The notes beneath the pieces were generated by a model. It was not told the origin of the DNA. It worked only from the letters and a program-made list of their open reading frames with translations, and did no database searches. A DNA stretch of 63,613 nt, the filler included, from Cystobasidiomycetes sp. EMM_F5 (taxonomy: Eukaryota): the NCBI GenBank assembly GCA_051047955.1. It is 38 parts of 38 records of this genome, joined end to end, with 100 filler letters (N's around TTAATTAATTAA, not from the genome) between each part and the next. Parts side by side here need not be neighbours in the genome. Positions count along the whole stretch, not along the records: positions 14,986 to 16,846 come from JBPGPT010000127.1; 37 more parts are not named here. The stretch is one strand, 5' to 3'. A program made the position numbers and the translations under genes. Positions 14,986 through 56,786 of this stretch are shown piece after piece. Position 1 is the stretch's first letter, and the number at the start of each line of letters is the position of its first letter.

Positions 14986-15037
14986 GAAAACACGTTAGTC
15001 GATTGTTGTATGTAGTATAGGTTTGCAAGTGGCGCTC
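14986..15037. repeat. Direct repeat copy 1 (52 bp visible, cut by the contig end); probable split terminal repeat of the YR retrotransposon
   Basis: Identical to 16246-16297. Confidence 0.9.
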
Positions 15038-15091
15038 GGGAGGGTTCTTTTACAACTGATTGCTCGCAATCTTTAAGAGCTACTGGCTACT

Positions 15092-15733
15092 ATGCAAGAA
15101 GCTATGAACGAGCAGAACAATGAGCAGCGCGACGAGGAGGAACCGGTAGAGCTGATGAATACGTCGTGGGCGGGTCTGCTGCCAGCAGATGTGGATCCAA
15201 ATACTCGCGGTGAAGAGTGGGCGAACGTGAAGGTCGCAGCGTTGACGGAGTGTACTCCATGTGTGAGTTCGGGCACCAAGTGTTATACTGACATGCATGA
15301 GAATTCCAAAGGTTGCCTTGGTTGTATTGCCAAAAAAATCCGATGCTATCGAGACGATATGGAAGATACGACCTGGCGTTGGAGATGGTGGGATCTCTTC
15401 ACAATAGCTTGGAATAACGCTCGATACTGGCGGAAGGAGCATCAAAGCAACGCTGATTTGGCTGACGCTTATGATGAAATGGAAGCGGAAATTGTCGAGC
15501 TAGAGCGAGAGCTCCTGCATGAGCGCGCCAAAAATACGCACAACCGAGCCAAAATACGCGATTTGCGCTTCAATTTCAACGCCGAACGTGAAGCTCGACT
15601 AACCAAGCAGGAAGAAGTTGATGTAATGCAGACGATGCTCATGGATCGTGACGTCCCGTTTGATATTATACGCGCCGAGGTAGAAAGGCGACGGCCACAT
15701 GCTCAAATTGTGGCCCGTCGTCGCTGGGCGTAA
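15092..15733 (+). CDS. Intronless 213-aa ORF with a Zn2Cys6-type motif and a coiled coil
   Basis: CTPC-VSSGTK-C-YTDMHENSKG-CLGC-IAKKIR-C = CX2CX6CX10CX2CX6C, followed by a heptad-rich charged helix. Confidence 0.75.
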   Translation: MQEAMNEQNNEQRDEEEPVELMNTSWAGLLPADVDPNTRGEEWANVKVAALTECTPCVSSGTKCYTDMHENSKGCLGCIAKKIRCYRDDMEDTTWRWRWWDLFTIAWNNARYWRKEHQSNADLADAYDEMEAEIVELERELLHERAKNTHNRAKIRDLRFNFNAEREARLTKQEEVDVMQTMLMDRDVPFDIIRAEVERRRPHAQIVARRRWA

Positions 15734-16245
15734 AAAGGTGCGTACTGCAAGCGGCCTCCGCAAGTCGGCGCTAGTGAGGTCTTCCCAGTGCTCAGGGAGG
15801 TGGGAGGGTAGAACAATCAGCTGTCAGTGCGAATGCGCTTAGCTGGCTGACGCTGCCTGCTGACCTGTATGGAACAAGCGCTGTCAGTGCGAGTGCGCTT
15901 AGTTGGCTGGAGCAGAAGCAGGCCTAAGACTCGAGGGGACCCCTTCACACTGCTCACAGCCATACAGGTTGTTTGCGCAAGTGATCCGGCTCGCAGCCTT
16001 TGCTTTTGCGGCCAAAGCGGAGTGCTCTCCTGGGCATTGGCGCGACATGGTGTCATGTCATGTACACACACCCCTCGGTGCTATCCGCTCAGCATGGACG
16101 TCCATGCCGCCATCGGACTTTCTCCGGCAGGGACCTGGCTGACTCTGCTGTCCCTGCTTGCATGGCTTGCTTGCCGGTTAGCTGTGCTAATGACCCTCGA
16201 CGACAGTTTTCACTTGTGTAACCATCGTTCCTCGGTTAAATACGA

Positions 16246-16297
16246 GAAAACACGTTAGTCGATTGTTGTATGTAGTATAGGTTTGCAAGTGGCGCTC
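16246..16297. repeat. Direct repeat copy 2, immediately downstream of the tyrosine recombinase stop
   Basis: Identical to 14986-15037. Confidence 0.9.
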
Positions 16298-16343
16298 TCC
16301 CACCCGTGTATGAGTATGGAAGAGTGGTGAAGTAATTACAAGA

Positions 16344-16846
16344 TCAGAACAGAGGCCCGCTCTGTGCTGCCGCGTGTATCAGAATAGGGTGCAGCCGGAT
16401 ATATGCTTCGAATGCACTGCTGGTCCATCGACCGAGCCGCTTTATGTGCTCTTCCCCTACGCCTTTCATGGCCAGATGGGTGGCTCCACCAGACCGCAGG
16501 GAGTGGCCGGCTACGTCGCAGTCGAAGACCTTTCGCAATTTCCCAAGGTACCACCTTCGTTTAGGAACCAGACCGTCCGCCTTAATGAGCAGAGGACCTA
16601 CGCCGCCGAAGCGCGCGTCGCGGCGAATTAAGTAATGCTCCAAGGCTCGTACCGGGCATATGCTGCTCATGCGCCGTTGCAGTATGCAAACGTTGCCTTG
16701 GAAGAATCTGTCCGCTTTGTGATAGGGTAAGCTGTACGTTGCTTGCGTTTGGGAGACGACAACGGAGCTACGTTGTATTCGTTTCCTTTCTTGATTGCCG
16801 CTATGTCGGTCGCCGTCTACAAGTTCCCCTAGCCTATGAAGAGCGT
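16344..16846 (-). mobile_element. Tyrosine recombinase of a DIRS/Ngaro-type retrotransposon, C-terminal catalytic part
   Basis: Open frame with LHRLGEL (R), YHKAD (K), CPVRAL, GHSLRSGGAT (HxxR), LGRWTSSAFEAYIR (W, Y). Confidence 0.93.
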
Positions 16847-18665: not shown

Positions 18666-19972
18666 CTGGGATGTTGACATGTATATAAGCACTTAACANN
18701 NNNNNNNNNNNNNNNNNNNNNNNNNNNNNNNNNNNNNNNNNNTTAATTAATTAANNNNNNNNNNNNNNNNNNNNNNNNNNNNNNNNNNNNNNNNNNNNCG
18801 CATATTCGCTCGCCTCAATACCGATACCTCGCAGGCAATATGAGAGACTTTGCTAAGTATTGTCATTTTGGACTTTCAGCTTGTGGGTGAAGTCAGATTG
18901 GACTGGCAGCGAGCAGGGAGTACGTTGTTTGTAGCGCACGACTTTCTTCTCCCGTCTGCCAGGCATATTTAACGAAGATCTCGGAAGGCAACGGCTGCTG
19001 GAATTACTGGCAGATCTTCAGCACTTGTTCTCACTGCCACGTCGGGCAGCACAACTGGACATGTTCGCTACAAAGATACTCCCAGTAGCTTCATACAAGC
19101 GTGAGATCACATGCATTCTCGGAGGGGAAGCTGAAGGAGAATACGAATCAAGCGGGGCAATTTCACTGCCCCCACATCCGCTTCTGCCAACTGGATGAGT
19201 ACACTTCCGTTAGAGAGTAGAACGACGTGGCTCGGAGTACTCCTGATACCTCGTATCACTTTTTGACTACGCAACCGTCGACTTTTCAGCCGACTCAGCT
19301 CAGGTGCGATACACACGGAGCCGCGAGTAGCTAGCTTACTCTAGATCTAGAGCAATGTCCTAGGCGTTTCCAGCTGAAATCGTCGCCCAGTGGTGTTTAC
19401 GTAAATCAATTCGGCGTACGAGGCCATTGGAAATCCCTGCAGAAATGTTGCTTTGACTGTGCGACAGATACAAGGATGTACTGTAGATCTCGTCATATTG
19501 GGGCAGGATGATCTTCCGTATCGGTCGGGAAGTGCAGGTAGTAGGACGTGGGAAGCATATCTGCACACGCACAGCGTCACAGAGTGCGCAAGCTGTCACC
19601 GACAGTCCGTCTTTAAGCACCCCTATCGGCGGAAGCCTAGCGTGATCACTCAGTCTGACCGCGGGTAATCTTGCATATCACCATAGCTGTAGCCATTGGT
19701 GTTCATCGTACAACTAGTGTCGAGTCCGTACGTGCACGAAGCAAGCCCGCTCGCCGTCAGTCCGAAGTCATTCGAGCCCGATATCGATCGAATGTGCTGA
19801 TTGGAGTAACGTACTGTTCAAGGAAGCATTGTCTCTCCTTACGTCCATCCAATGCACGTCTGCTCACAAACTGCTGCTGTTTTGTGCTCAACGTAGACCA
19901 TAACGCTCCTGACTGTCCACATTCCCGCTTCGCCTTCATCTGCCGCCGAGGACTGACTTCTTCGAAGAAATC

Positions 19973-20540
19973 ATGACGGACAGCGCCGGCACGATTGACA
20001 CCCAGCAGGTAGTGCCGCCAGTCTCCACGAGCACTCCGGCACGGCGGTCAGATACAGTCTGCGTGCTGTGTCATACAAGAAAGGTCAAATGCGATCTCCA
20101 GGTAAGCCACGGTGGACGGCGAGCTCATGCATTAGCTACGTCAATCTCTGACTTGTGCTGCTCAAACCGAAGACTCGACTGCGAAACAGCTTTATGCAAT
20201 GTACAAATTGCGAAAATGCTGGCCAACAGTGTCACAAACGTCCCTCGAATCGCGGCAAGAAACGTAAATTGTTCGACATGCCCGACCTTGTCGTGCCGAA
20301 TTTACCCGTCGAATCTCAGCAGCTGCAATTGTCGACGATCTTGCCTCTGCCTGAGCGCCCTCCAAATGTTTCCGCTCTCGTGACCGGTCCAATTTCGACC
20401 AATGAGCTAGACAATCTTTTAAACACCTGCATCGTCGATGGCAGTGCCGGACCACAGAGCCTACCTGCGCAAGCACCACCTTCGTTGCACACACTCAACG
20501 AAGGACCTGGAGAAAGCTATTCTGGAGACGTCGATACGGG
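19973..20540 (+). CDS. Zn2Cys6 transcription factor N-terminus (intron within the cluster), 3' truncated
   Basis: CVLCHTRKVKC...CTNCENAGQQC followed by the basic stretch RGKKRK. Confidence 0.88.
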
Positions 20541-21032
20541 NNNNNNNNNNNNNNNNNNNNNNNNNNNNNNNNNNNNNNNNNNNNTTAATTAATTAANNNN
20601 NNNNNNNNNNNNNNNNNNNNNNNNNNNNNNNNNNNNNNNNCCAGAGGCGACGGGCCTTGGTCTGCAGTCTCGACGGATGCCTTCTGCTTTCGATGGCGGC
20701 TCACTTTGTCGTCTTCCTGCTCAATAAGCTCGTTGATGAGGGTGATAGCTTTGCGTATACCATCGACAGCAGCAGCTCGCTCTGTTCGCTCCATGATCCC
20801 AGATCAATCGCTATCTCGACGACATGGTTGCGCAGAAGGACAAGCGAATCAATCCAGTACCGGTACCGTAAATCGTCAATTCAATATATGACATATATAG
20901 TCTTGCTGAAGAGCTCCGACGGGACACGGTGCGCCAAAAGGTCTCGTCGAACGGGCGTGTTGCCTACAGCAGTAGTACATTCAGAAATGTCAAGTTGATA
21001 TAATGAGCGCTAGTACTATTGCTGCATACAAT

Positions 21033-36238: not shown

Positions 36239-37577
36239 TGTGCTTACAGACACTGTCCCTACCGACTCGACGCTGACAGGCTCCACCGCATGGCGCGATC
36301 CATCCCGTACCGAACTGTGATTCGCAGGCCGTACCTACGCGAAAAGGGTATAAGCTCTCGCATTAGCTGTAATATGTTTCTGCGCTACTTGTGCTCAATA
36401 TGGCTGAGCTGGGTAGAAGTCGTTCGTTTCGATTAGCGGTAGTGGAACAGTAGTACAATGTGATTAAAGCGGTCCTAGCTGCCACCAGTCAGACGCCCAA
36501 GTGCTGAGCCTACTTGTTGTCTAATTGATGCAGGAATGGGCAGAAATGTTTGCTGAGGTCGTCTCAAGCACCGATATCCTGTATATACACGTGTCAAGAT
36601 CCCAACAAAATCAATCAACTACGAAGCTGGGACCTTTCGTCATCCAAGCGCAAACGATTGAAAATTCAGCTGTCCGAGCGAGGTGCTTGTCTACTGAACT
36701 CTGCTGACAGCGTTTGTGCGCAAGTGTCGGCGCGCTTCGAAAGAGCGTCAGGGTTTGTGTTCTTATATTGACTGCGTTGGCGTTTGCAGGACGACCGGAC
36801 CTTCGCGGGATACTAGCCATAGTCATGTGGAGTAGGTCATAAAGTATACGCAGCTTTGGCGACAGGCGAATCCAGCAATCGTACAGCGACTGGTACCGTG
36901 CCATATGAAATTTCTGTCCAATGAGCGTTGCCGGTGCTTCTTGGCGTGGCGTGAAGATTTGATATGGTGCTGTATTGCACGTCCTGTGCATATCAGTAGG
37001 GATATAACATTGCAAAATGAGCTATAGCCAGTCTAAATCCCGACCGAGTTCCTTTGCCAACGGGAAAGTAAGGCCAAGCTGACGAAGTTGACCAACCCCT
37101 CGTAGGAATTCATGTCGAATGCGAATCGGAATGCCATGGCGTTGGATAATCCCATCGTTCTTTACAAAGTGACCTACGGAGTCGTTCGGCGATTGAGGAC
37201 GGCATTCTGCGAGCAGAGATGGAGCGCATGCATCGGTACGCGACTGGGGAGTCACGATCAGACTCGACCTCGGTGTAGTTGACCACGACAATGTGGCGAG
37301 ATCTACTTTGGCGCTCGAGAGCACTGCATGTGGTNNNNNNNNNNNNNNNNNNNNNNNNNNNNNNNNNNNNNNNNNNNNTTAATTAATTAANNNNNNNNNN
37401 NNNNNNNNNNNNNNNNNNNNNNNNNNNNNNNNNNTTGATAAGGCAGCAATGGTCAATATTAAAGCGAACGAATCTTTATTTTGTGATGATCCTTTGTTTT
37501 TAGATTCTCTAAAATAGGACAAGACAATAATTAGGGATAAATGACCTTAGCAATAATATAATCAGGCCGTGTCAAAT

Positions 37578-37693
37578 AAAAGGATAGTTTAAGGATAAAA
37601 AGGGTATTTTCAAACTAAGAGTTTAGTTTAAGGATAAAAAGCCTTTTTTCAAAATAAGAGTTTAGTTTAAGGATCAAAAGGCTTTTTCAAAAT
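37578..37693 (+). pseudogene. Three tandem degenerate 5'-half copies of mitochondrial tRNA-Trp
   Basis: Units of 39, 39 and 38 nt starting at 37578, 37617 and 37656 align with the first 39 nt of trnW. Confidence 0.8.
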
Positions 37694-37764
37694 AAGAGTA
37701 TAGTTTAAAGGTAAAATCGCTATCTTCAAAATAGCTTATGTATGTTCGATTCATGCTGCTCTTG
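37694..37764 (+). tRNA. trnW: Mitochondrial tRNA-Trp(UCA)
   Basis: Acceptor AAGAGTA/TGCTCTT; anticodon arm GCTAT-CTTCAAA-ATAGC; T-loop TTCGATT. Confidence 0.9.
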
Positions 37765-38295
37765 ATCTTATTTTTTAGTTGTAACTGAGCAGACCTTTGT
37801 CTTGGGTCAACAACCTGATTAACATTAAGATTATTGTTTAAGCTTTATCTGATTAATCTACAGATTAATCACAAGTTATCAAGCGTATTCGCTTTAATAT
37901 TGACCCTTGCTGCCTTATCAAGCAGAGCTTGATAAGGCAGCAAGGGTCAATATTCTTGCGTGTGAATATTTTTTTTTTATAAATATTCAGAAGCTTGATA
38001 AGCAACAACACCAAAGGTTCACGTTCGCAGCGGAGCTGCGAATAACCTTAATATTTTTACTTAAAATTTTCAGATTAATCACAAACACCAAGCAACCGGA
38101 AAAAAAAAGTGTCGTTTACATGGCTTTATTCGTTAGCGCAACCAAAAACGGGGGATTGATTAGTATTTACGTTGTTTTCTTTATTTTTTTTTTATAAAAT
38201 AAAAAAAGGCGTCCGGAAATACTAGTAAATAACCGGATTGTTTTATGAGCATTAACTAACTGAAATAACCCCGCTACTATACCTGATGCAGGTAA

Positions 38296-38541
<246 letters not shown>

Positions 38542-38679
38542 TTTAAACCTTGAATCGAGTGATTATCTTTAGGTTAATCAGGTTAATTTTTTTATTTTTT
38601 ACTTTTTTTTAATAAAATAAAAAAAGGCGTCCGGAAATACGGCCGTTGAAGTTATTGCTGCTGATTAATCACAAGCAAT

Positions 38680-38737
38680 GGTCCTCCCCTGATTTTTAAG
38701 TAAAAATCAACAACAGTCGGGAGGAGGGGTAAGGACC
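38680..38737. repeat. Dispersed 58-bp mitochondrial hairpin element (GGTCC...GGACC)
   Basis: Near-exact reverse complement at 56336-56393; partial copy at 52553-52601. Confidence 0.85.
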
Positions 38738-38987
38738 AGATATCAACTATTCAGGTCAGAAAATAATAGCCCCCTTACTTATAATTAGGGTTTTTCTTGT
38801 TTGCAGCTTATGATTATCATCCGTGCGAACAATACGGTGAATTGAATTCACCAAATTCATCCCATTTTCAGGGCATTCGCAGTTGCANNNNNNNNNNNNN
38901 NNNNNNNNNNNNNNNNNNNNNNNNNNNNNNNTTAATTAATTAANNNNNNNNNNNNNNNNNNNNNNNNNNNNNNNNNNNNNNNNNNNN

Positions 38988-46571: not shown

Positions 46572-48148
46572 NNNNNNNNNNNNNNNNNNNNNNNNNNNNN
46601 NNNNNNNNNNNNNNNTTAATTAATTAANNNNNNNNNNNNNNNNNNNNNNNNNNNNNNNNNNNNNNNNNNNNAGGTTGAAGTCAATAGTCGAAGGTAAGGT
46701 CGAAGGTCGAGGTACTACTAGTTGAAGATGCTAGAGTCGGAGGCGAGGTGCGGTTATAAAGATTGGAGGGGGATGTGGTGGAGGGGAAGGATAGGGTCGG
46801 AGGTTGTCGGGGTTGTCGAGGTTGGTGGCTGGTAGCGGAGGCAAGGGATACTGGGTGACTGTATTTCAGAACAGAACTGGGAGGAAAGGAGCTAAGGGAC
46901 AACGGGAAATGTGTATGTCTTTTATATCTTTCCTGACTTCAATAAATGCTAGAATATTCTTGGAGTTCCCTCCCAGCAGGTCGATGAGAGACCGAGGCTG
47001 GAAGGTTCCAGGGTCGATGAGAGACCCATGGAATACTCTCGAATATTCTGCGAATTAATGAATGTGAATCTAGAACTATCCTTATCTTATCTACACTAGG
47101 CCTAGGCCACTTGGCTGCGGTCGGTGGAAGTGGCGCCTTCCCGTCTCCTTATCTTTCCGTTCGGTCATTTGCTCCTCTTCTCTTGATTCATCAACTTGCT
47201 TCCTCACTTCCTTCAAGCTCCATATCATATCTAGCATCTCCATCATGGCTGCTCTCTCCGTACCCCGCGCCCGCCAGCCGTGCATGAGTTGTGAAGTCCT
47301 GCAGGAGCCGTGCTTCCTGCAGGCAGGGAAGGATGACTGCGAAGGCTGCGTCGGCAGGCAGTTGTCTTGGTGTGATGCCAGTAGGTAAAGTGGGCTCGTG
47401 GAGGAGGGTACTGATGATACTGATGTGTGTGTGTATGTTTGTAGCCCACGAACCCTTGGTCATCAACCCTGCCTGGCTGGAAATAGACCTTACGGTCACC
47501 AGCGACGAGGGGAGCGACGACGACTCCGATATAGTGTGGATTGGGGATGTCGCCGTCACAAGTGCAACCTCTGTCGATGAGGGACAGGGTTCCCTTCTTG
47601 GTGAGTAGTCGTTGTCGATGAGAGACAAACGTCCTGACTGAGGGTTGGGAGTGCAGGGGAGGAGATCACAGCTGCCGATGAGAGGCAGACTGATACCGAT
47701 GAAGAAGGCCGGGCCAGCGAGGTTGACGAGCTCGAGTCGAGCGTTGGAGGGCCGGACGCCTGGGATGAAGACGTAGAAGATATTTCGGCTACCTATCCTG
47801 CTCCCGATGAAACCAATGCCGGATGGCAGTCGACGGCCATCGACGTGGAGCTGCGACGGCTCTTCGACGAGTATGTCGGCGAGGTCAAGCATTTCTTCCT
47901 TACTCTTGAGGGGGACTCCGTCCAGCGTCTCGCCATCCTGCATGCTACCAAGGCCATGTGTCTGGGCCATCTGGATATCCTGCATATCGTTCGGTCCGAG
48001 GCCTTGCGCCAGACTTGGGATGTGGTGATTGAAGCGGAGGGGATTGTGNNNNNNNNNNNNNNNNNNNNNNNNNNNNNNNNNNNNNNNNNNNNTTAATTAA
48101 TTAANNNNNNNNNNNNNNNNNNNNNNNNNNNNNNNNNNNNNNNNNNNN

Positions 48149-48272
48149 TGTTGCTGAGTTTGTTGAAGTTGTTGCTGAGTTTGTTGAAGTTGTTGCTGAG
48201 GGAACCTCAGCAAATTCAACAATAACCTCAGCAAATTCAACAATAACCTCAGCAAATTCAACAAACTCAGCA
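48149..48272. repeat. Mitochondrial 21-nt tandem/inverted repeat cluster (TGTTGCTGAGTTTGTTGAAGT / AACCTCAGCAAATTCAACAAT)
   Basis: Tandem units in opposing orientation; related clusters at about 55970-56044 and 56490-56565. Confidence 0.85.
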
Positions 48273-48442
48273 ATGGACTCATTCCGATTCTTTTTATTAG
48301 CGCAGCTAATAATAAGGGGATGAATTTTGTGAATTCAATTCACCGTACTCAACTTTTTATTACAGTGTTTGTGATCATTAGGAATAAACTAAGCATACTT
48401 TAAAATTTGGCCGTAAATTATATAGCCTATGTTAATCTTAAA

Positions 48443-49450
48443 ATGTTGTCTGTTGTTTTACGGTCTCCAGTTGTAATTAGTCTTTTAGAAGTTTTAATTG
48501 TACTAGTACCCATTTTATTAGCTGTAGCTTTTATAACCATCATTGAACGAAAGGTTTTAGCAGGGATGCAAAGACGAGTGGGTCCAAACAAAGTTGGATA
48601 TTATGGTGTACTACAACCGTTTGCCGATGCATTGAAACTAGTGGTAAAAGAAACGGTAGTTCCACAACATTCAACCAAAAGTCTGTTTTTCCTTGCCCCC
48701 ATGATTACTCTCATTTTTGCTTTACTAGGGTGAGGGGTTATTCCTTTTGGTAGCGGTATTACCCTTACCGATTTTTCATTAGGGATTCTATACTCGTTAG
48801 CAATTTCGTCCATTGGGGTTTATGGTGTATTATTTGCAGGATGATCTGCCAATTCCAAATATGCTTTTTTAGGATCTTTACGAAGTACTGCTCAAATGAT
48901 TAGTTATGAGTTAATTTTTAGCTCCGCTGTCTTGGCCGTCATTTTGTTAACCGGAACCTTTAATTTTATTAAAATCATTGAAATGCAACAAAGTGTTTGA
49001 TTTGTACTGCCACTACTTCCATTGTTTATTGTCTTTTTTATTTCTGCTTTAGCTGAGACTAATCGAACACCTTTTGATCTTCCAGAAGCGGAAAGTGAAT
49101 TAGTCGCCGGGTTTTTCACGGAGCACTCAGGGATAATTTTTGTGTTTTTTTTCTTAGGTGAGTATTGTAGTATTGTCTTAATGTCAACCTTTACTGCCAT
49201 TTTGTTTTTGGGTGGTTACTTGTTACCTGAAGTGGTAGTAAACGATAGCTTTATTAATGTACAATCAATTGTACTGGGATTAAAAACGTGTTTGTTTTGC
49301 TTTTTGTTTGTCTGATTTAGAGCGACACTACCACGATTACGATATGATCAGTTAATGCAGTTTTGTTGAACAGGTATGTTACCAATAGTCATTGGTTTTA
49401 TTATTTTAATTCCCTCTTTACTTGTTGCTTTTGATATTGCACCTTATTAG
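48443..49450 (+). CDS. nad1: Mitochondrial NADH dehydrogenase subunit 1 (335 aa, intronless, translation table 4)
   Basis: [56 protein letters not shown]; five in-frame TGA codons at Trp-type positions (48731, 48842, 48998, 49313, 49367). Confidence 0.97.
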
Positions 49451-50139
49451 TTCATTCTAGTGAAGACTCATTCCGATTCCTTATCTTTTTTAGATAATCT
49501 AAAAAGGAGAAATAAGGAATNNNNNNNNNNNNNNNNNNNNNNNNNNNNNNNNNNNNNNNNNNNNTTAATTAATTAANNNNNNNNNNNNNNNNNNNNNNNN
49601 NNNNNNNNNNNNNNNNNNNNTTTAGACATCGTCAATAAGTCCTATACAATGCCGCACAGGCCAAGCTCACAAACGCCTCTTCGAATGCCCATTTTTTGAC
49701 CATGACTGCTGCCAGATGTACAGTGTATACCTAAATTCTCGACCAGGGTGGATGTAGGGCGCTCCTTGTGGACAGCAGCTGGGAAGGTCTGCGCGTGTAT
49801 CGACAATACTCAAAGTGCGGGGAAGTTGATCAAGCGGCATCAGCGGCCGGACTCCCGGCCGTCCTTTCGCGCGCCGGTCTCCACGGGCCCGCGCGGCATC
49901 ACTTATCGCTCGCTGAAAAACTTGGATAGTCTGAGTTCCGGCATCACTACTGTGGAAACGCTGCGATAGCGATGCTTTATTTGTGGAGAATTTAGATCCT
50001 GCTGTAAGGATACGGCATCCGTCAGCTTCCTTGCGAGTACGCGACGAATTTTGAGGACCCAGGCTTCCAGTCTGGAGCAGAAGCGAAGCGAAGCTTAAGG
50101 TGTTGCATTCAGGAAACCGCGACTACTCAGTAAGGAATT

Positions 50140-52436: not shown

Positions 52437-52636
52437 NNNNNNNNNNNNNNNNNNNNNNNNNNNNNNNNNNNNNNNNNNNNTTAATTAATTAANNNNNNNN
52501 NNNNNNNNNNNNNNNNNNNNNNNNNNNNNNNNNNNNAACAAACTCAGCAACACCTCTCCTCCCGACATTCTTGATTTTTACTTAAAAATCAGGGGAGGAC
52601 CAAGGGGTCGTCACAGTAACTCTGTTCTGGTGAAAG

Positions 52637-52708
52637 GGGGGGATCGTATATCTGGTAGTATCACGCTTTTGCATAGCGTAGGGATTGGTTCAAGTCCAAT
52701 TTCCTCCA
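52637..52708 (+). tRNA. trnA: Mitochondrial tRNA-Ala(UGC)
   Basis: GGGGGGA/TTCCTCC acceptor; ACGCT-TTTGCAT-AGCGT. Confidence 0.9.
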
Positions 52709-53033
52709 ACACAGTTCGTTATCTTACTTTTTATTGTTTGTAATTATTACTTGGAAAAAGTGTTTTTAAGTTGTTTGGCAAATACACATTATGTTTAAGT
52801 GATTATTTGGTTATTTTTTGATTACATTGTTGCTTTATCAAGATGCTGAATCTTTATTTTATACAGATTCAGGCGCTTGATAACTTGCTGAGTTTGTTGG
52901 TGATTAACCTTTAGATTAATCACCAACAAACTCAGCCACAATTACCACAAATAAAAATAAGGATAATCAAGTAATCAAAAAGTCAAAAATTGAATCTAGG
53001 GTTTTGTTGCAATTAATAACCACTAAAAAGTTG

Positions 53034-53114
53034 TGAGCGATATCCTAATGGTAAGGAGACTCGCTGTAAACGAGTTGGTCAAGGCCATTGGGGGTTCGAT
53101 TCCCTCTCGCTCAA
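53034..53114 (+). tRNA. trnY: Mitochondrial tRNA-Tyr(GUA)
   Basis: TGAGCGA/TCGCTCA acceptor; ACTCG-CTGTAAA-CGAGT; long variable arm. Confidence 0.9.
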
Positions 53115-53485
53115 AGCTCTGTTTCTTTATAACACGGCCTGTTTTCTGGTTTATTTAGATTCATTTCGATTTCTTATCTTTTTTAAAGAATCTAAATAGG
53201 AGAAATAATCGAAACATCAGGAAAAATAATCGAAACATAAAAAGTAATAAGAAATCGAAACAGAAAAAGTAATAAGAAATCGAAACATGAAAATGAAATG
53301 GATCATAAGGATTTTTTAATGTAGTCATGTTTATTATTGAAATTATGGCTTAAATTCTGGTTAACGTTTATTCCGAAAATCGTAATTAAGATTAACAATG
53401 ACCTCAGCAACCTGCTTGTTTTCAGGGCTCTATAATCGCCCTGAAAATGTATAACATAAAAACCTGAGTAATGATTTAAATTAAA

Positions 53486-53568
53486 GGACATGTGGCAGAG
53501 CGGTTTAATGCACCATACTTGAAATATGACGTACTTAGGTACCATGAGTTCGAATCTCATTTTGTCCG
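53486..53568 (+). tRNA. trnS: Mitochondrial tRNA-Ser(UGA)
   Basis: GGACATG/TTTGTCC acceptor; CATA-CTTGAAA-TATG; long variable arm. Confidence 0.88.
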
Positions 53569-53963
53569 GCTTATTTGCAAAACTCCTCAGGGGTTTGCCT
53601 GTTATAAAGCTTATTTTTGATTTTTTTACTAAGTTTGTTGACTTTGCTGAGGCCTTATCAAGCTTATTCGCTTTAATATTGACCTTTGGTCAATATTCTG
53701 GCGAACGTGCTTGATAACTTGTAGAAGTCAGCAACAATTTCAACCAATAAAAATAAGGGAAATAATCGGAAGGTCTAAGAATATATTATTCTAAGTTCTG
53801 ATCATTTTTAAAGTTATCCTTTTTAGATTCCTTATCAAGCATGTGAATATTTATTTTATAAATNNNNNNNNNNNNNNNNNNNNNNNNNNNNNNNNNNNNN
53901 NNNNNNNTTAATTAATTAANNNNNNNNNNNNNNNNNNNNNNNNNNNNNNNNNNNNNNNNNNNN

Positions 53964-55277: not shown

Positions 55278-55493
55278 NNNNNNNNNNNNNNNNNNNNNNN
55301 NNNNNNNNNNNNNNNNNNNNNTTAATTAATTAANNNNNNNNNNNNNNNNNNNNNNNNNNNNNNNNNNNNNNNNNNNNACAAACTCAGCCACAACCTGATT
55401 AACCTAAAGGTTAATCACAAACCAATAAAAAGTACAGGCCTGATTCTTATAAAAATAAAAATCATCCCCTTGCAAACACAAAACATATATAAA

Positions 55494-55575
55494 ACAAATA
55501 TGCTGAAATGGTATACAGGCTGCTCTTAGGAAGCAGTGACATCCCGTCGTGCGGGTTCAAGTCCCGCTATTTGTA
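55494..55575 (+). tRNA. trnL: Mitochondrial tRNA-Leu(UAG)
   Basis: ACAAATA/TATTTGT acceptor; CTGCT-CTTAGGA-AGCAG; long variable arm. Confidence 0.9.
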
Positions 55576-55600
55576 GTTTTAAATTTAAGATAAAAAAAAG

Positions 55601-55671
55601 GCATTGCTAGCTCAATGGTAGAGCACTATACTTCGGATATAGCAATATTGGTTCGATTCCGGTGTGATGCT
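55601..55671 (+). tRNA. trnR: Mitochondrial tRNA-Arg(UCG)
   Basis: GCATTGC/GTGATGC acceptor; CTATA-CTTCGGA-TATAG; consistent with CGA codons in nad1 and atp9. Confidence 0.88.
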
Positions 55672-56232
55672 ATTGTGAATAGACCATTTACAGTTAATTT
55701 AATTAAAAAAAAAATCCTCCTGAAAACAAGGTTAATGAGCGAAGCTAAGTGTACTTTTGCTATTTTCAGGAAAGGTGTAGCTTCTGAATCTTTATTTTAT
55801 AAATATTAACGTTCGCCAGAATAACCTAGATAAAGCAACAATGGAATCTAAAAACAAGCGATTTTTTATATAAATCTGAAAAAGCAAATCAAAATAATCG
55901 TAAGGTATAAGAATCCATTTTCAGGGCCTTTTTCAGGGGCATTATTTATGATTAATAAAGAACGGGCCCCTTTGTTGAATTTGCTGAGGTTATTGTTGAA
56001 GTTTATTCAACAAACTCAGCAACATATTCAACAAACTCAGCAACGAAAAACTAGAGCCCTGAAAACTCAAATAATAAAAATAAGTCCTGAAAATAGCTCA
56101 ATTTTCACAAATGCACAAGTTCTGATCATTTTGATTTTCAATCAAGTTCTCAAGCTCTGCTTGAGAAGGGATCAGAAGGAGTTTTTAATGTAATAATCAT
56201 TCATAAGGGTATTTTTCTGTATGAACTATATA

Positions 56233-56304
56233 ACGGACATCGTATAACGGTTAGTACTGCTACCTTCCAAGTAGCAAGTGAGGTTTCGATTACCTCTGTC
56301 CGTA
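56233..56304 (+). tRNA. trnG: Mitochondrial tRNA-Gly(UCC)
   Basis: ACGGACA/TGTCCGT acceptor; GCTAC-CTTCCAA-GTAGC. Confidence 0.9.
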
Positions 56305-56786
56305 TAACGTTAATTACAGTTAATTGTTGATATCCGGTCCTTACCCCTCCCCCCGACTGTTGTTGATTTTTACTTAAAAATCAGGGGAGGACCAAGGGGA
56401 CCTCAATAACGGTTCGTTTTCTTTTGTACAATAACCTCCTCCATTATTTTCATTGGCAGCGCCTGATTATTTTTTTTTAATAGGTTGAAATTGTTGCGGA
56501 GTTTGTTGAAGTTGTTGCTGAGTTTGTTGAATAAACTTCAACAATAACCTCAGCAAATTCAACAAGTTATCAAGGTTATTCGCTTTAATATTGATAAAAA
56601 AAAATCTTCACAAGCAACAATGAGCTTAAGATTTTTTTAAGTAAATCTTAAACGTTTTCAGGGGACCCGTTCGCATGTGCATATTTNNNNNNNNNNNNNN
56701 NNNNNNNNNNNNNNNNNNNNNNNNNNNNNNTTAATTAATTAANNNNNNNNNNNNNNNNNNNNNNNNNNNNNNNNNNNNNNNNNNNN

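Follow-up and report, generated by a model that had tools for sequence, protein, structure and literature searches.

A candidate antisense gene for a six-cysteine protein with a predicted coiled coil in the split-repeat tail of a Ngaro-type retrotransposon from a phyllosphere yeast

Introduction

When a retrotransposon carries an additional gene, it can reveal by what route such elements come to regulate themselves or to interact with the host. The 1,861-bp unplaced contig JBPGPT010000127.1 of Cystobasidiomycetes sp. EMM_F5 raises the question of whether a retrotransposon of the tyrosine recombinase (YR) type has acquired such a gene: its minus strand holds the end of a YR gene followed by two copies of a 52-bp sequence, and between these copies the plus strand holds an open reading frame (ORF) of 213 codons, here called ORF213. 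The isolate is a phyllosphere yeast whose genome of 18.6 Mb was assembled into 253 contigs with SPAdes 3.15.5 from 2x151-nt reads (PMC12697161). The contig occupies, whole and exactly, positions 14986-16846 of the 63,613-nt stretch of DNA analysed here (the window), which consists of 38 small contigs in falling order of size, from 2160 to 1266 bp, with 100-nt N/TTAATTAATTAA/N linkers between them. As the linkers join separate contigs, any feature that appears to span one of them is an artefact.

Ngaro elements end in split direct repeats in the order A1-[ORFs]-B1-A2-B2, that is A-pol-B-A-B (PMC3783388; PMC8547959; PMC9210276). A preliminary description of the contig, made from the sequence alone, had applied this scheme by taking the 52-mer for B and everything between its two copies for A, which would place a Zn2Cys6 gene inside the terminal repeat of the element itself. 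Our analysis leads to a different arrangement. The reading that we favour, with a little less than even confidence, is that the contig represents a Ngaro-type 3' end in which a 764-bp cassette with one antisense gene was acquired between A2 and B2 and is copied with the element. The features on which this reading draws are collected in Table 1.

Table 1. Features of contig JBPGPT010000127.1 in window coordinates, with repeat assignments as read in the text.
Feature	Position	Strand	Basis
B2, outer copy of the 52-bp split direct repeat (element terminus), contig edge	14986..15037	-	identical to 16246-16297
GGGAGGGT, 8-bp direct repeat, left copy, abutting B2	15038..15045	.	repeat search, spacing 764
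Extra segment, 756 nt (764 with one repeat copy)	15046..15801	+	size equals excess over related tails
ORF213, intronless 213-aa gene, antisense to YR	15092..15733	+	no internal stop; coding-like
Six-cysteine module CX2CX6CX10CX2CX6C, residues 54-85	15251..15346	+	regular expression; without PF00172 match
Long helix predicted for residues 121-185; predicted parallel homodimeric coiled coil with interface at ~120-202	15452..15646	+	structure predictions
GGGAGGGT, 8-bp direct repeat, right copy	15802..15809	.	X2 unitig homology starts at 15809
Probable A2, ~436 nt, abutting B1	15810..16245	-	inferred from X2 breakpoint and relatives' geometry
Two 30-nt sub-repeats inside probable A2	15820-15849, 15880-15909	-	repeat search of the contig
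B1, internal copy of the 52-bp repeat	16246..16297	-	identical to 14986-15037
46-nt spacer from YR stop to B1	16298..16343	-	frame and repeat coordinates
YR C-terminal 166 codons and stop	16344..16846	-	open frame from contig end (truncates gene) to stop at 16346-16344

Results

A tyrosine recombinase gene of DIRS order

At E<=1e-3 the 166-residue YR fragment retrieved 23 homologues, 306-1560 aa in length. All but one are stand-alone proteins of 306-363 aa; the exception, a fusion of 1,560 aa, comes from Sporobolomyces johnsonii and weakly matches RVT_1 and RNase-H-like profiles as well. In a 23-sequence alignment the fragment aligns along all of its 166 residues with 22 full-length YRs and corresponds to their C-terminal half. 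Every invariant column that it covers is kept (E170, R188, H205, K206, H277, R280, W303 and Y311 among others, in the numbering of P0006), and the retained blocks include HKAD, HSLRSGGAT and GRW, together with the catalytic lysine, the HxxR motif and the tyrosine. The match of the fragment to the Pfam Phage_integrase profile is weak (E 0.064), as it is for the relatives.

A metagenome scan with the fragment alone gave 208 pattern matches, none of which was confirmed; a second scan, for which the 23-sequence alignment was used, yielded 79 related loci, all of them distant, with YR identities to the contig of 42-49%. In 43 of the metagenome loci 1 kb or more of sequence precedes the YR gene. Of these, 39 have reverse transcriptase and ribonuclease H (RT/RNase H) directly upstream of YR on the same strand, and three of the four other loci have RT matches farther upstream. 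RT/RNase H followed by YR is the DIRS-order gene layout. Judged by its conserved residues and by the neighbours of its relatives, the fragment comes from a genuine tyrosine recombinase of a family placed behind RT/RNase H, in line with the Ngaro-like retrotransposon of the preliminary description. A 184-nt contig of sequencing run X1 (organism A) matches 16396-16579 with one mismatch, which indicates a near-identical YR in another data set.

Split direct repeats behind the YR gene

The two 52-mers are identical at 52 of 52 positions and are spaced 1260 nt start to start, with 1,208 nt between them; the chance origin of two perfect 52-mers within 1.9 kb is essentially impossible. That the repeat begins about 45 nt behind the YR stop, as first described, proved accurate to one nucleotide. 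To look for similar structures we went through 51 YR tails, each 300 nt or longer, from 50 related loci (L026 and L027 are the same element), and in 13 of the 51 a direct repeat was present whose first copy begins 33-222 nt past the YR stop. In these 13 loci B has a length of 26-121 nt; its two copies are spaced 412-885 nt apart in 12 of them and 114 nt apart in the other, and the longest ORF between the copies, on either strand, encodes 74 aa. The contig end coincides exactly with the end of B2 in three of the 13, and is at most 14 nt away from it in two more.

Because 13 relatives share this post-YR pair of repeats, and because several of their contigs end at B2, we read the two 52-mers as B1 and B2 and the outer one as the terminus of the element, and so retain the identification of the 52-mer with B that had been made before. 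The left 52-mer sits at the very edge of the contig, and its outer boundary lies outside it. Six of the related contigs (L004, L007, L024, L029, L040 and L069) come back to their own first letters after ~4.7 kb, at the far end of the contig, or run from YR, B and A into the next gag gene; such contigs are what a de Bruijn assembler gives when A1/A2 and B1/B2 collapse, or else tandem copies.

The extent of repeat A and the extra segment

The preliminary description held that all 1,208 nt between the 52-mers are A, so that ORF213 would also stand at the 5' end and be present twice in each copy of the element. This is the simplest fit to the A1-[ORFs]-B1A2B2 scheme (PMC8547959). The dimensions of the relatives argue otherwise. 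Pairs of A1 and A2 are visible in five loci (L054, L026, L022, L069 and L071); L069 and L071 show a truncated A1 only, and in the other three A has a length of 264-346 nt. In the Xenopus elements A is 236 nt (PMC9210276). The 12 relatives with B-to-B spacings of 412-885 nt likewise fall short of the contig. Subtraction of the 764-bp segment that is bracketed by the 8-bp direct repeat GGGAGGGT reduces the spacing of 1260 nt to 496 nt, in the mid-range of those 12.

A second line of evidence comes from sequencing reads. A 151-nt unitig from the phyllosphere metagenome run X2 is the same as 15809-15914 without a mismatch and continues at its left with 45 unlike letters, so that homology breaks at 15808/15809, where the right-hand GGGAGGGT borders on probable A2. 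On the sense strand of the element the loose letters contain an ATG ~24 nt past the break. If A ends at the break, the YR stop would be separated from that ATG by ~558 nt (46+52+437+23); the distance from the YR stop to the ATG of the gag-like ORF1 is 503-583 nt in L036, L004 and L024, where the repeats are collapsed or tandem. With an A of 1,208 nt, more than 1,300 nt would be required between the YR stop and ORF1. In four relatives ORF1 begins 41-61 nt past the end of A1, and in four the spacer from A2 to B2 measures 40-165 nt.

On the strength of the X2 break and of the YR-stop-to-ORF1 geometry of the relatives we place the boundary of A at ~15809. It is thus more likely that A spans ~15810-16245 and that 15046-15801 is an insert between A2 and B2, and ORF213 would therefore lie in this insert, outside any repeat that is copied at both ends. 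That A fills the whole interval, and with it that the gene is part of the terminal repeat proper, we now regard as improbable.

A second unitig of run X2 matches 16016-16166. Coverage of the contig by runs X1 and X2 is confined to 16396-16579, 15809-15914 and 16016-16166, and runs X3 and X4 cover nothing; the uncovered parts, the ORF included, are uninformative. No sequencing run in the search contained half of the contig's words, and none of the runs listed as sharing words with it was an RNA data set. A search of the window with 30 loose letters of the first X2 unitig, at up to 3 mismatches, found no occurrence, and by eye only the last 5-6 of its loose letters are alike to the 60-nt sub-repeat unit, of which they were considered as a candidate third copy.

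ORF213 as a gene

The intact, intronless frame of 213 codons that had been described on the strand opposite to YR was recovered without an internal stop, and leaves a leader of 46 nt and a trailer of 68 nt within the extra segment. When the 1,208-nt inter-B region was shuffled 2000 times with its dinucleotide composition kept, an ORF of at least this length appeared in 7 of the trials. With a codon model trained on 17 long open stretches from the other contigs of the window, the frame of ORF213 scores best of the six (0.162 bits per codon vs -0.42 to 0.04 for the other five), and its GC content by codon position (0.60/0.40/0.53) follows the order GC1>GC3>GC2 of the training set (0.565/0.442/0.533).

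Searches for homologues point to a very small family. An exhaustive HMMER search of 1.84 billion representative proteins yielded three: the gene model of the contig itself (P0001), a protein of 208 aa (P0026), and P0025, a repeat protein that is clearly spurious as a homologue and was rejected. P0026 matches with an E-value of 6.3e-4 and is colinear with ORF213 over residues 42-195 at 26-28% identity; the two have in common the six cysteines, a WR...W.N stretch, an AEREARL motif, their length and the order of their domains. When P0026 is compared with the window by tblastn it retrieves ORF213 at E 1.9e-10. A word-indexed search with ORF213 found its own gene model only, an alignment search P0026 and P0001 only, and scans of viral_contigs and genome_contigs gave no match; the ESM Atlas held no usable match for ORF213 or P0026, and the PDB sequences none for ORF213 at E<=10. 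P0026 belongs to a cluster of four variants (P0026-P0029) on ENA/Logan contigs, which differ at four positions: E6/G13/C73 or D6/D13/W73, each with L206 or F206. The occurrence of all four combinations suggests recombining alleles or several copies.

The gene model deposited for the contig, 'hypothetical protein EMMF5_006582 [Cystobasidiomycetes sp. EMM_F5]' (P0001, 164 aa), removes four of the six cysteines by way of a frame-shifted middle exon. The intronless reading is to be preferred to this splice model because P0026 is colinear with it. A more sceptical view would be that ORF213 is a chance open frame in a non-coding tail and that P0026 matches it through a shared helical, charged composition. 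Matches to Pfam, the PDB and the Atlas are indeed lacking, the similarity to the sole homologue is modest and in good part falls in the low-complexity helix, and the other match of the same HMMER search was spurious. The results of the shuffles, the superiority of the coding frame over the other five, and the agreement of P0026 in length, domain order, cysteine positions and short motifs, with the tblastn result, are hard to reconcile with this view, and we consider it very unlikely. ORF213 is probably a real gene, as far as coding statistics and one colinear homologue can tell. It was also compared with gag read in reverse, and this origin was rejected: the gag-like ORF1s of L004, L024 and L036 (413-433 aa, with C-terminal CCHC knuckles) were unmatched by phmmer.

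A six-cysteine module and a predicted coiled coil

The protein encoded by ORF213 has an acidic N-terminus, the six-cysteine module, a Trp-rich linker and the coiled coil, in this order. It has no Pfam match at E<=1, Fungal_trans included, which bears out the earlier statement that this domain is missing. The perfect CX2CX6CX10CX2CX6C motif reported at 15251-15346 was confirmed exactly by regular expression, and the spacing fits the Gal4-type rule CX2CX6CX5-12CX2CX6-8C, with only one basic residue between the second and third cysteines. The step taken before from this motif to a Zn2Cys6 protein with the Gal4 fold is not supported. None of the five family members matches PF00172 at E<=10, for a profile run without a positive control on a known Zn2Cys6 protein. 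In P0026 the cysteine spacing, counted by eye, is x2, x8, x9, x2, x8, with eight residues between the second and third cysteines vs six in the Gal4 rule. Conservation of the cysteines, the lack of which the preliminary description had named as fatal to its reading, is partial: all six are common to ORF213, P0026 and P0029, but the sixth is a tryptophan in P0027 and P0028, two of the four members of the cluster. The protein thus has a Gal4-like architecture of cysteine module, linker and dimerising coil but fails membership of the Zn2Cys6 family, and six-cysteine, coiled-coil orphan protein is the fitter label. The module is probably zinc-binding.

The AlphaFold2 model of ORF213 has a mean predicted local distance difference test score (pLDDT) of 47.5 and contains a single long helix of low confidence, at residues 121-185. 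Two copies of residues 100-213 are predicted to associate as a parallel, in-register pair, with contacts such as 137-137, 141-141 and 155-155. The interface score ipSAE of this pair is 0.65, vs 0.00 for the best of three controls; of 30 proteins with structures solved as same-chain pairs 21 attained that mark, vs none of 23 solved as single chains, and for eukaryotes it was attained by 17 of 29 pairs and none of 30 single chains. At least 75% of contacts are common to the dimer runs, and the partner has a pLDDT of at least 79. ORF213 is therefore predicted to form a parallel homodimeric coiled coil, and the long coiled coil and dimer of the preliminary description are supported by the models, the helix with low confidence and the homodimer in a prediction that passes its controls.

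Two further places in the window carry cysteine patterns of this kind. The only other match to the Gal4-type spacing, at 47281-47373 on the plus strand (CMSC...C...CEGC...C), is followed by a stop five codons on; its frame overlaps a 264-aa ORF on the minus strand and has no similarity to ORF213. At 19973-20592 (+), on contig 18799-20540, two overlapping frames, one with CVLCHTRKVKC and the other with CTNCENAGQQC, resemble the halves of a canonical Zn2Cys6 gene split by an intron, and this gene probably encodes a host transcription factor.

Is the cassette part of the element?

In the arrangement that we favour, the element would read on the minus strand: C-terminal half of YR, 46 nt, B1, A2 of ~436 nt, and B2 as the terminus. 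Between A2 and B2 it would have gained a cassette of 764 bp with an 8-bp direct repeat on either side; this cassette would carry one intact gene antisense to gag-pol-YR, and would be copied along with the element in the manner of the antisense extra ORFs that lie between pol and the 3' long terminal repeat (LTR) of other retrotransposons. Copying of the cassette with the element should be possible because the B1-A2 junction and both repeats have been left intact. The anatomy of the repeats, the family of the YR, the surplus length of the tail, its 8-bp bracket, the coding-like character of ORF213 and a single distant cluster of homologues are observed; where A ends, whether the cassette moves along with the element, zinc binding and what the protein does are inferred. 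As to the last, our guess, drawn from architecture and analogy only, is that ORF213 might act in the nucleus as a small dimeric factor, with nucleic acid or a partner protein as its ligand, and modulate transcription or silencing of the element.

The place at which the contig stops may bear on copy number. The largest k used by SPAdes by default is 77, which exceeds the 52 nt of the repeat. If the isolate was assembled with this k, a unique flank should have been joined through such a repeat, and the stop at the outer end of B2 would suggest a branch between at least two flanks with B2 and 25 nt or more of the cassette in common. If so, more than one copy would carry the cassette.

Several observations weigh against this reading. 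The boundary of A is drawn from a single 151-nt metagenome unitig of depth 2 and from geometry. Repeats of 8 bp are common by chance in 1.3 kb (there are three other pairs of 8-9-mers), so that only the position of this pair is notable, and the bracket would fit a private insertion in one dead copy too. Relatives of ORF213 or P0026 occur in none of the 79 related YR loci, and in the 23 loci whose tail measures 1 kb or more, none of the 24 ORFs that reach 110 aa matches ORF213 by phmmer (E >=0.7, with bit scores near or below zero); these ORFs are mostly gag genes of the next copy or flanking genes. The sole homologue cluster comes from contigs of 1.1-1.6 kb, on which its context is unseen. The 63,613-nt window contains neither the RT and gag genes of the element nor its 5' end. 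As regards the protein, pLDDT is below 50 for residues 1-101, which renders the model of the cysteine region unusable, and the dimer may have passed through its likeness to solved coiled coils, which are abundant among structures, rather than through real binding.

The leading alternative is a private nested insertion: unrelated DNA, such as a small mobile or duplicated host gene, would have landed in the tail of one inactive copy, would not move with the element and would have no role in it. On this account the 8-bp direct repeat, which resembles a target-site duplication, the empty count among the 79 loci and the restriction of the homologue cluster to short contigs with unseen context are what one would expect. 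Against it, the copy looks young, with ORF213 and 166 YR codons intact and B1 equal to B2; the insert has neither terminal inverted repeats nor poly-A, as judged by eye; and the halt of the contig exactly at the outer end of B2 would be explained most simply as a branch into two or more flanks with B2 and part of the insert in common. We find the private insertion doubtful. The preliminary description had looked to homologues of the ORF beside YR or RT genes elsewhere for support, and the 79 metagenome loci provide none. This comes close to the outcome that it named as fatal, an unrelated insertion that other copies of YR never accompany, but with YR identities of only 42-49% these loci do not settle the matter. 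The cassette may or may not travel with the element.

Other searches of the contig and the window

No further piece of the element was found in the window by blastn, tblastx or tblastn, with the contig, P0024 (RT-RH-YR) and ORF213/P0026 as queries, nor does any part of 15038-16245 recur elsewhere in it. The contig has no match in Rfam at E<=1 or with Tandem Repeats Finder. Four contigs of the window (37435-38887, 48149-49520, 52537-53863 and 55378-56686) have a G+C content of 33-35%, vs 46-57% elsewhere in the window, and may be mitochondrial or foreign pieces.

Discussion

If the favoured reading of an antisense cassette between A2 and B2 is true, this antisense, dimer-forming, cysteine-rich tail gene would, in the literature searched, count as a first in elements of DIRS order. 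It would also provide a compact case for the function of antisense accessory ORFs, in a culturable yeast with a genome of 18.6 Mb and in a cassette of 764 bp, where the review of their plant counterparts lists the function as unknown (PMC7264820). If the cassette is a private insertion, the finding shrinks to an ordinary Ngaro 3' fragment with an orphan gene.

A bolder form of the favoured reading can be put forward, although we think it unlikely in full. A YR lineage in a phyllosphere yeast would have captured, and would now mobilise, an antisense gene for a dimeric zinc-binding factor in the spacer between A2 and B2; the gene would be expressed from the 3' terminus inward, and its product would regulate transcription, targeting or silencing of the element, as a YR counterpart of HBZ, the antisense gene of human T-cell leukaemia virus (HTLV), and of the antisense ORFs (aORFs) of plant elements. 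The 8-bp bracket would then mark capture by a microhomology template switch or by site-specific recombination.

Among the closest known systems are the Ngaro elements of Basidiomycota (Muszewska et al., 2013; PMC3783388), with which the contig shares the YR family, the position of YR as the last sense gene and the split direct repeats after the YR stop. It differs from them in a tail that is ~760 nt longer than those of the 12 measured relatives and that holds an intact antisense gene; RT, gag and A1 lie outside the visible part of this copy. The terms antisense, zinc, coiled and additional ORF are absent from the main text of that survey of fungal YR elements, although its supplements may list further ORFs. 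The same holds more widely: in the portions of the literature searched on Ngaro and YR retrotransposons no antisense or cysteine-rich gene is described, with the same proviso for supplements, which agrees with the earlier remark that such cargo was not known to have been described for these elements.

The only extra gene described for YR retrotransposons in the literature searched is a fourth ORF of amphibian and fish Ngaro elements, which encodes an SGNH hydrolase after YR and whose function is unproven (PMC9210276). It resembles ORF213 as an extra gene past YR and inside the element. The SGNH hydrolase ORF is drawn as overlapping with three other frames, those of gag, RT/RH and YR, and an enzyme domain can be recognised in it, whereas ORF213 runs antisense, beyond A2, and contains no known domain.

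At the level of the protein, ORF213 recalls the Gal4-type Zn2Cys6 proteins (PF00172) in the spacing of its six cysteines, its linker and its dimerising coil. Gal4 itself combines a Zn2Cys6 module, a linker and a dimerising coiled coil. Unlike these proteins, ORF213 has no match to the family HMM and one basic residue between the second and third cysteines, and its homologue has spacings of x8, x9 and x8. HBZ, encoded antisense in HTLV, is a leucine-zipper protein, and the coiled-coil dimer predicted for ORF213 is a likeness to it.

For HTLV the review of plant aORFs covers, in the portion cited, the antisense promoter only (PMC7264820). The aORFs treated there offer a parallel in genome organisation. 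The LTR retrotransposons Grande (gene23), RIRE2, Retand and PvRetro13 carry antisense ORFs between pol and the 3' LTR, with functions listed as unknown (PMC7264820). The host of ORF213 differs in being a YR retrotransposon with split repeats, and conserved plant aORFs occur in most copies of their elements, vs one copy known for ORF213. The likenesses are a location after the last pol-type gene and beside the 3' terminal repeat, an antisense orientation, an orphan sequence and a proposed regulatory role; ORF213 takes the position of an aORF, on the opposite strand and between the YR stop, B1 and A2 on one side and B2 on the other.

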